A stretch of DNA of 34,836 nt from a virus (IMGVR_UViG_2687453454_000001:1-34836); one strand, 5' to 3'. Shown: positions 18,015 to 18,032, counted from the stretch's first letter. The notes: generated by a model not told the origin, from the sequence alone. Numbers and translations: made by a program.

Positions 18015-18032
18015 GGCGGGCTTCGGCCCGCC
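18015..18032 (+). other. stable stem-loop with UUCG tetraloop between capsid and small terminase genes
   Basis: GGCGGGC-TTCG-GCCCGCC perfect hairpin 10 nt after the N stop; no following U-tract. Confidence 0.5.

Follow-up and report, generated by a model that had tools for sequence, protein, structure and literature searches.

What function may be served by a short, GC-rich stem-loop that is situated between the major capsid gene and the small terminase gene of a P2-like phage, inside one operon and without the uridine tract of a terminator? The window, i.e., the whole stretch of 34,836 nt analysed here (IMGVR_UViG_2687453454_000001), has been found to be a complete P2-like (Peduoviridae) prophage of Escherichia coli, which adjoins a tRNA-Gly/Cys/Leu cluster (pgsA to yecA). 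A 901-nt query covering N-M has matched 17 of 5,426 complete E. coli genomes, six of them at 100% identity, and among named phages Enterobacter phage phiT5282H and Klebsiella phage 3LV2017 (Reginaelenavirus) come nearest. The gene order Q-P-O-N-M-L-X is that of the classic P2 head cluster, with strong Pfam matches for all of its members:

13162-14214, - strand: portal gene Q (Pfam)
14217-15938, - strand: large terminase gene P (Pfam)
16005-16022, no strand: TGT-N12-ACA dyad in the divergent P/O promoter region (motif scan; equivalent in the P2 annotation)
16099-16932, + strand: scaffold gene O (Pfam)
16956-18005, + strand: N, major capsid protein (P2 family), the upstream cistron (Phage_cap_P2 PF05125, E 4e-127)
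18052-18780, + strand: M, small (endonuclease) subunit of the terminase, the downstream cistron (Phage_term_smal PF05944, E 5e-43)
19020-19517, + strand: head completion gene L (Pfam)
19517-19717, + strand: X (Pfam)

The naming of the two flanking genes as major capsid and small terminase genes in the first-pass annotation is thus borne out by Pfam, and E. coli prophages with the annotation 'phage major capsid protein, P2 family' have an N that is 100% identical. The dyad is presumably where an Ogr-type activator acts on the late promoter from which the hairpin-bearing transcript originates; its equivalent in P2 (AF063097) is annotated as 'activator binding site; pO, pP promoters', and the same annotation presents the O operon (O,N,M,L,X,Y,K,lysA,lysB,R,S) as one unit. 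A scan for the Ogr dyad TGT-N12-ACA, whose overall count is at chance level, has revealed no separate late promoter for M or L in the N-M or the M-L spacer. P2 late transcription relies on the host polymerase, and no antiterminator is known to take part in it. Gene M of the window has been found to be frameshifted at 18760-18765, where six G stand in place of the five G of a 98%-identical relative (L029), and therefore it ends at 18780 (242 aa) instead of reaching 287 aa. In the +1 frame, the lysine-rich C-terminal tail that has thereby been lost can be read as far as 18916. E. coli EC26 (NZ_CP060880), which is 100% identical here, has the same M end in its annotation; we are dealing with either a sequencing error in the homopolymer or a prophage that is defective. 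Between the replication/toxin region and portal gene Q, two ORFs at 9412-9798 (128 aa) and 9819-12653 (944 aa) have been noted, which have no Pfam or PADLOC match and are hypothetical in RefSeq, at a position that is known as a cargo hotspot of P2-like phages.

The N-M junction itself is built as follows:

18003-18005, + strand: N stop codon TAA (sequence, ORF list)
18006-18014, + strand: 9-nt linker CCGCACACT between stop and stem (sequence)
18015-18021, + strand: 5' arm GGCGGGC (sequence, fold)
18022-18025, + strand: loop TTCG, a C(UUCG)G tetraloop in RNA (sequence)
18026-18032, + strand: 3' arm GCCCGCC (sequence, fold)
18040-18044, + strand: Shine-Dalgarno (SD) sequence GGGGA of M, 7 nt past the stem and 7 nt before the ATG

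A perfect 7-bp GC stem with a TTCG loop and without a U-tract had been described after the N stop, and the sequence agrees with this description exactly. The stem consists of seven perfect G-C pairs and can be extended by an optional U18014.G18033 pair, and GTTCATC separates its end from the GGGGA, with the M ATG at 18052 being located 19 nt downstream of the stem. The hairpin 18015-18032 alone has been calculated to -14.5 kcal/mol and a 24-nt window with the added U.G pair to -16.2 kcal/mol; on the + strand of the window (34.8 kb), no 24-nt segment folds lower, and 8989-9012 is practically equal to it. Perfect 7-bp-stem hairpins occur 32 times in the window and only two of them are all-G/C, and loci at or below -16 kcal/mol per strand number two, as compared to 0.64 +/- 0.69 in dinucleotide shuffles of the window. 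Over 35 kb, the stability of the hairpin taken alone is mildly unusual; the chance of finding one such hairpin inside the 46-nt N-M spacer is ~0.001. A 71-nt context fold has been no better than its shuffles (z = -0.51), because the surroundings are GC-rich. Stability alone is a modest argument; the case for the hairpin's significance rests on its position and conservation. A terminator scan has not called 18015-18032, because only 3 T are present in the 8 nt past the stem, and a search of Rfam 15 with the hairpin has returned no family (best scores of 13-16 bits against gathering thresholds of 41-218). A second all-G/C, U-less hairpin of the same style, GGCGGGG-TTTC-CCCCGCC at 8989-9006 (-17 kcal/mol on the - strand), has been found at another intercistronic junction, with the stop of a ParE/RelE-like toxin ORF (9012-9290, - strand) 5 nt before it and an HTH_3 ORF (8451-8828, - strand) downstream.

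Regarding its occurrence, 433 loci encoding N relatives have been compared, and N stop and M start have been located in 422 of them. A long N-M spacer of 40-66 nt is present in 282 loci as 88 distinct versions, each of which (88/88) contains a GC-rich hairpin with an energy between -9.5 and -23.3 kcal/mol. These loci belong to Reginaelenavirus, Reipivirus, Senquatrovirus, Xuanwuvirus and unnamed relatives from Klebsiella, Enterobacter, Kosakonia, Serratia, Pantoea, Pectobacterium, Brenneria, Erwinia and Yokenella, and their N is 47-100% identical to that of the window. A short spacer of -4 to 10 nt without a hairpin has been observed for P2 (junction TAACCGATG) and for the 186-like, phiCTX and Burkholderia/Ralstonia types, in which N is 37-45% identical to the window's N; in phages of the P2, 186 and phiCTX types, it measures 2-5 nt. 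No lineage with a long spacer and without a hairpin has been found in this set, as four apparent exceptions are frameshifted or mis-delimited genes. Losses inside the hairpin clade have been seen in L025 (Serratia symbiotica, spacer TGATGATG), in L223, L224 and the L427 group (spacers of 9-20 nt) and in L089 (IMGVR_UViG_2541047105_000007). The last is a natural knockout from which the hairpin has been cleanly deleted, leaving the spacer TGACAGAAGCGGCGGGGAGAAGTGACGATG, apparently by slippage between two CGGGG copies, one in the 5' arm and one in the SD region.

Within the hairpin-bearing lineages, the base of the hairpin lies 12-19 nt from the M ATG in every lineage, and a G-rich SD follows the hairpin at 1-7 nt in all of them; the linker from the N stop to the hairpin measures 3-29 nt and is poorly conserved. 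None of the 88 homologous variants has five or more T in the 8 nt past the stem, and shuffling each spacer by itself has given modest z-scores (-0.03 to -3.7). A mosaic boundary coincides with the spacer in L004-type loci, for which N is 94% and M 62% identical to the window, and the comparison of this group with the window has shown that the hairpin type tracks the M type and not the N type. Indeed, stems of the GGCGGGG type have been observed only together with an M of 54-63% identity, N still being at 90-94%. A GGCGGG/CCCGCC core is common to lineages with differing flanks. An outer CCG/CGG helix between the post-stop linker and the SD has been dropped from consideration, as it is absent from the large L004 clade.

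What has been preserved at this position is the pairing and much less the letters. The nearest clade shows no change in any of the 14 stem bases, and free variation in linker, loop and 3' flank. Among the relatives, at least six unrelated stems, each self-complementary, are found at the same position, and the stem variants (5' arm/3' arm) include:

GGCGGGC/GCCCGCC, unrelated stem variant
GGCGGGGC/GCCCCGCC, stem variant
GGCGGGGG/CCCCCGCC, stem variant
GGTGGGGG/CCCCCACC, stem variant
GGCCAGC/GCTGGCC, unrelated stem variant
GCAGGCCG/CGGCCTGC, unrelated stem variant
GCCGGGG/CCCCGGC, unrelated stem variant
CCGCCGGG/CCCGGCGG, unrelated stem variant
CCGGTGCCGGA/TCCGGCACCGG, unrelated stem variant

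In a loop-anchored register, 27 distinct 7+7 arm combinations have been counted, and both G-C and C-G occur at each of the seven pair positions; since the register has been derived from folding each sequence singly, the percentage of paired positions is partly circular. MAFFT alignments of the spacers (A3, A4, A5) place related stems out of register, and RNAalifold has consequently returned only 3 invariant pairs from them, which makes these alignments unusable for covariation; the loop-anchored tabulation (Python) and a 3-pair count on alignment A9 have been used instead. In close relatives (N 90-94%), one stem pair has been found as C-G (6 sequences), U.G (L055) and U-A (L060), and another shows G.U (L071), and the corresponding 3-pair covariation count on A9 (136/500 shuffles) is based on an alignment that is too small for significance. 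Over all variants, G.U replacements represent ~11 events, several of them fixed in multi-locus lineages, and A.C replacements ~5, all in 1-2 loci. As G.U keeps the pairing only in RNA of the + strand and A.C only on the - strand, the excess leans towards an RNA of the + (coding) strand, with ~11 versus 5 events not being significant (one-sided binomial p ~0.1). A covariance model built from the hairpin has found one site per locus and, in the window, only 18014-18033; its alignment (A7) has been left out of the pair counts, because both strands matched and unrelated stems were missed.

The loops of the relatives measure 3-9 nt and comprise TTCG, TTAG, TTTG, CTCG, TGCG, TACG, TCCG, CACG and TTAA as well as ACCT, ATT, AAAT, GAAA, AGCAA, TCA, TAACT and GATAACACG. 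UUCG, UGCG, UACG and UCCG all occur in the nearest clade, and UNCG has been found only in part of that clade; these four variants are mildly interesting and suggestive only. The emphasis that the first-pass annotation had put on the UUCG tetraloop has therefore not been sustained, the loops of homologues varying in sequence and length, and the conserved feature is rather the GC stem structure at the N-M junction. Judged from these comparisons of sequences, the hairpin is a clade-specific element of the late O-operon mRNA that is kept as a structure. Related phages keep it though its sequence differs, and we therefore regard it as a real but ordinary mRNA element.

The neighbouring cistron boundary of the same transcript carries a structure of its own. 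The M-L spacer (~92-112 nt) has one fold architecture in every sampled Peduoviridae lineage, including P2, at N identities of 37-100%. The element of ~75 nt, which comprises two hairpins, lies at 18917-19019 in the window and at L109:4322-4420 in P2, and its parts in the window are:

18924-18936: hairpin 1 with a CCC(C) loop
18936-18941 with 18994-18999: outer helix of the long hairpin, GGCGG/CCGCC type
18942: bulged C
18943-18951 with 18982-18990: inner helix
18991-18993: 3' loop UCA

The outer and inner helices flank an asymmetric internal loop, and the sequence of the inner helix is wholly different between lineages. In 29 diverse representatives (alignment A10), the internal loop has its 5' C in 29/29 and a 3' YCA (C 27/T 2, C 29, A 29), and the two long helices are paired to 98.9% and 97.1%, as compared to 31-49% in slid controls. 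Pairs changed on both sides amount to 10 of 12 in the two long helices and 11 of 16 over all three helices, and 78 double-change cells have been counted versus 19.1 +/- 3.6 in shuffles (0/500). The YCA motif with a complementary upstream helix has been recovered in 208/208 distinct M-L spacers of 85-130 nt (388 loci). The M-L element has no match in Rfam, no description of it has been found in the searchable literature, and it appears to be undescribed so far; an RNase III-type processing site, a protein-binding operator and a put-like antitermination RNA are candidates for its role. According to these sequence comparisons, the O-operon mRNA is structured at its cistron boundaries, both N-M and M-L. 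The M-L element is family-wide and a more valuable lead than the N-M hairpin; given its very strongly covarying structure, it is more plausible that the N-M hairpin, too, acts at the RNA level.

How may the N-M hairpin act? Two suggestions had been made at first, stabilisation of the capsid transcript and attenuation of read-through into the terminase gene. An RNA-level role in the late mRNA on the + strand is consistent with a hairpin selected as a structure, and the stabilising role appears plausible and is ranked first here. The reading that we favour, and to which we assign somewhat less than an even chance, is that the hairpin is a 3'-exonuclease barrier ('decay terminator') by which the O-N segment outlasts M and beyond; we infer both the action in RNA on the + strand and this mechanism. 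The hairpin would be part of a polycistronic late mRNA from the O promoter (O-N-M-L-X-lysis-tail), and the stem would form once it is transcribed, without transcription being terminated there. The distal message would be cut by endonucleases, or ended by Rho if M is poorly translated, and PNPase and RNase II would trim it in 3'-to-5' direction and stall at the stem. The scaffold-capsid (O-N) segment may in this manner outlive M and beyond, which would yield far more capsid protein than terminase from a single promoter, and the hairpin most likely tunes the surviving capsid versus terminase message. With a linker of 9 nt, a ribosome that terminates at the TAA would reach with its leading edge to about the start of the stem, so that translation of N would not need to melt it. 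N is required in hundreds of copies per T=7 capsid and M in catalytic amounts, and this stoichiometry argues for differential expression. Against the barrier stands that the hairpin is dispensable in evolution, as is seen from the short-spacer phages and from the losses inside the clade. Furthermore, the tight SD spacing as compared to the loose stop spacing, together with the linkage to the M type, means that an M-linked role fits at least equally. On a described N-M hairpin or on RNA-seq of these prophages, the searchable literature has provided nothing relevant.

Such an M-linked role, which we consider a realistic though minor possibility, would make the hairpin a part of the M 5' untranslated region that tunes M initiation or caps a processed 5' end. 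It might limit the standby surface as a boundary, insulate the ribosome binding site from the GC-rich N end, uncouple M from N-terminating ribosomes or, after a cut in the 9-nt linker, form a 5'-terminal stem-loop that shields the M-L... segment from RNase E. The nearly fixed distances to SD and ATG, as opposed to the distance to the stop, are in line with this, and so is the co-segregation of hairpin type and M type, with the reservation that recombination crossovers inside the conserved N would in any case lead to co-inheritance with M. Hairpin-less phages have the close stop/start of a translational-coupling arrangement and hairpin phages an independent strong SD, yet the same SD is kept in hairpin-less members of the clade (L089, L427 group). 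T4 gene 32 mRNA is stabilised by a 5' CUUCGG hairpin, according to a review (PMC8948821). In some lineages, the 3' arm can pair with the SD if the 5' arm is blocked (-9.3 kcal/mol in L004, -7.9 kcal/mol in L222), but this pairing is negligible in Reipivirus and Xuanwuvirus and without effect in the window, where the SD lies 7 nt outside the stem and its accessibility is 0.31 versus 0.33 with the 5' arm blocked; an SD-sequestering operator has been rejected on these grounds. The N-M spacer of L222, whose main hairpin is GCCGGGG/CCCCGGC, has an 11-bp alternative helix GTTTTCCCCGG/TTGGGGGAAAC that could sequester the SD of M, and in partition-function folding the unpaired probability of this SD is 0.61 normally and 0.02 once the 5' arm is blocked; a riboregulatory function of this variant is possible. 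We think it unlikely that the stem-loop has a segmentation role, in which it would, with the M-L structure, split the O-promoter transcript into O-N, M and L-onward segments of separate stability and translation and would in some lineages be a switch, the 5' arm keeping the C-rich anti-SD (3' arm) off the SD of M and ribosome traffic at the N end or processing setting M synthesis inversely to N. As a general explanation, an anti-SD switch has been discarded, since partition-function folding with the 5' arm blocked has shown an effect that differs from lineage to lineage and does not occur in the window.

A weak transcriptional attenuator or pause site that lowers M and the later genes is quite unlikely. 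The placement of a GC hairpin right past a highly expressed gene resembles that of T7 T-phi, three U are found within 7 nt past the stem, and the polymerase is that of the host, with no known antiterminator in P2 late transcription. The GC-rich stem-loop of an intrinsic terminator is present as well (7 G-C pairs, -14.5 kcal/mol), but a uridine tract is absent from the window (tail GTTCATCG) and from the 88 variants (tails including ATGACGGG and CAGGAGAA), and the mechanism therefore cannot be canonical intrinsic termination. The hairpin does not mark a unit end either, because the essential M, L, X, lysis and tail genes follow, with no late-promoter dyad in the N-M or M-L spacer according to the motif scan, and the prophage's own unit-end terminator carries TTTTT. 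Attenuation of read-through by intrinsic termination, the second of the initial suggestions, is thus unsupported. A canonical bidirectional intrinsic terminator at 8419-8447 (AAATGCCCCG-TTGC-CGGGGCATTTTT; full sequence AAATGCCCCGTTGCCGGGGCATTTTT, with TTTTT), situated between a convergent replication gene and an HTH gene, contrasts with the U-less N-M hairpin. Very unlikely is also a GC palindrome that serves at the DNA level as a module-boundary linker or persists as a near-neutral remnant. The N-M mosaic across the spacer in the L004 group, the common GGCGGG/CCCGCC core, the direct repeats around the L089 deletion and the score of the covariance model on both strands would be compatible with it. 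A recombination linker, however, requires sequence identity, yet at least six unrelated self-complementary stems share the position; compensatory and G.U changes keep pairing rather than sequence, and a neutral palindrome is not expected to persist down to 47% N identity. It is hardly credible, finally, that the region is coding, with M starting at TTG 17977, or that the hairpin stimulates frameshifting or read-through at the N end. The RefSeq (PGAP) gpM of identical E. coli prophages starts at the equivalent of TTG 17977, overlaps N by 29 nt and runs through the hairpin, the M frame is open back to 17962, and a stable hairpin 6-9 nt past the decoding site has the geometry of a recoding stimulator. 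On the other hand, the spacer lengths of the relatives are distributed over all classes mod 3 (34/33/21), 47/88 have an in-frame stop before the ATG, and protein conservation sets in precisely with ATG 18052, in front of which a proper SD is found. A recoding stimulator has been rejected, as no slippery heptamer precedes the TAA stop and the N/M frame relation is not conserved. Judged from the sequence, the true M start is probably ATG 18052, and the RefSeq start at TTG 17977 is probably wrong in these E. coli prophages.

If the exonuclease-barrier reading is true, one branch of P2-like phages uses a minimal RNA element to set, from a single promoter, a large capsid-to-terminase expression ratio, whereas its P2/186 cousins juxtapose the N stop and the M start instead, which would be two solutions to one stoichiometry problem. 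The hairpin is, in addition, a marker of the Reginaelena-/Reipi-/Senquatro-/Xuanwuvirus branch, and in itself of an ordinary and well-known kind.

Among the known systems, intrinsic terminators follow capsid or coat genes in T7 (T-phi after gene 10) and f1 (after gene VIII). They resemble the N-M hairpin in their placement past the most-needed structural gene, with more capsid than downstream message, and differ from it by their defining U-tract, which the N-M hairpin does not possess. Promoter/stem-loop cassettes (PeSL) have been described in T4-type phages (PMC2839356). They share with the N-M hairpin a short stem-loop at the boundary of mosaically inherited modules, but are present in many copies per genome, contain a promoter and terminate effectively, whereas the N-M hairpin is single-copy, lacks a promoter motif and differs in sequence from lineage to lineage. 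CUUCGG hairpins are common in phage intergenic regions, especially in T4, with roles that include mRNA stabilisation (Tuerk et al. 1988, as summarised in PMC8948821 and PMC4371310). The intercistronic (X)6-CUUCGG-(Y)6 of the window, in a phage mRNA, has the same form, the UUCG being closed by C-G on a Watson-Crick stem (GGCGGG-C-UUCG-G-CCCGCC), but its homologues use many loops on a conserved GC stem, and selection on the tetraloop is not seen among them. In E. coli, stable U-less stem-loops define RNA 3' ends and protect them from PNPase and RNase II (PMC6061677). These are likewise energetically stable and not followed by a uridine-rich tract; they are located where transcription units end, immediately upstream of rut sites, in contrast to the N-M hairpin, which lies inside an operon and past which a translated gene with its own SD begins after 19 nt. 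The REP of malE-malF is an intercistronic element of the decay-terminator type. A REP/BIME-type repeat has been rejected for the N-M hairpin, which, unlike REP, is not a repeated genomic element: a single site occurs per locus, and the median number of places at which the 901-nt N-M region occurs in an E. coli genome is one. For the puf operon of Rhodobacter, an intercistronic stem-loop acting as an 'mRNA decay terminator' has been reported (Chen et al. 1988, cited in PMC9690577). With these two decay terminators, the N-M hairpin has in common that it is a stable, U-less stem-loop between a high-demand and a lower-demand cistron of one operon, and it is conserved as a structure and not as a sequence, with weak small-alignment statistics (136/500 shuffles). 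The puf and malE-malF elements are larger or consist of several hairpins, and their block of 3' decay has been shown experimentally, whereas the N-M element is a single hairpin of 7-8 bp that is known from sequence.
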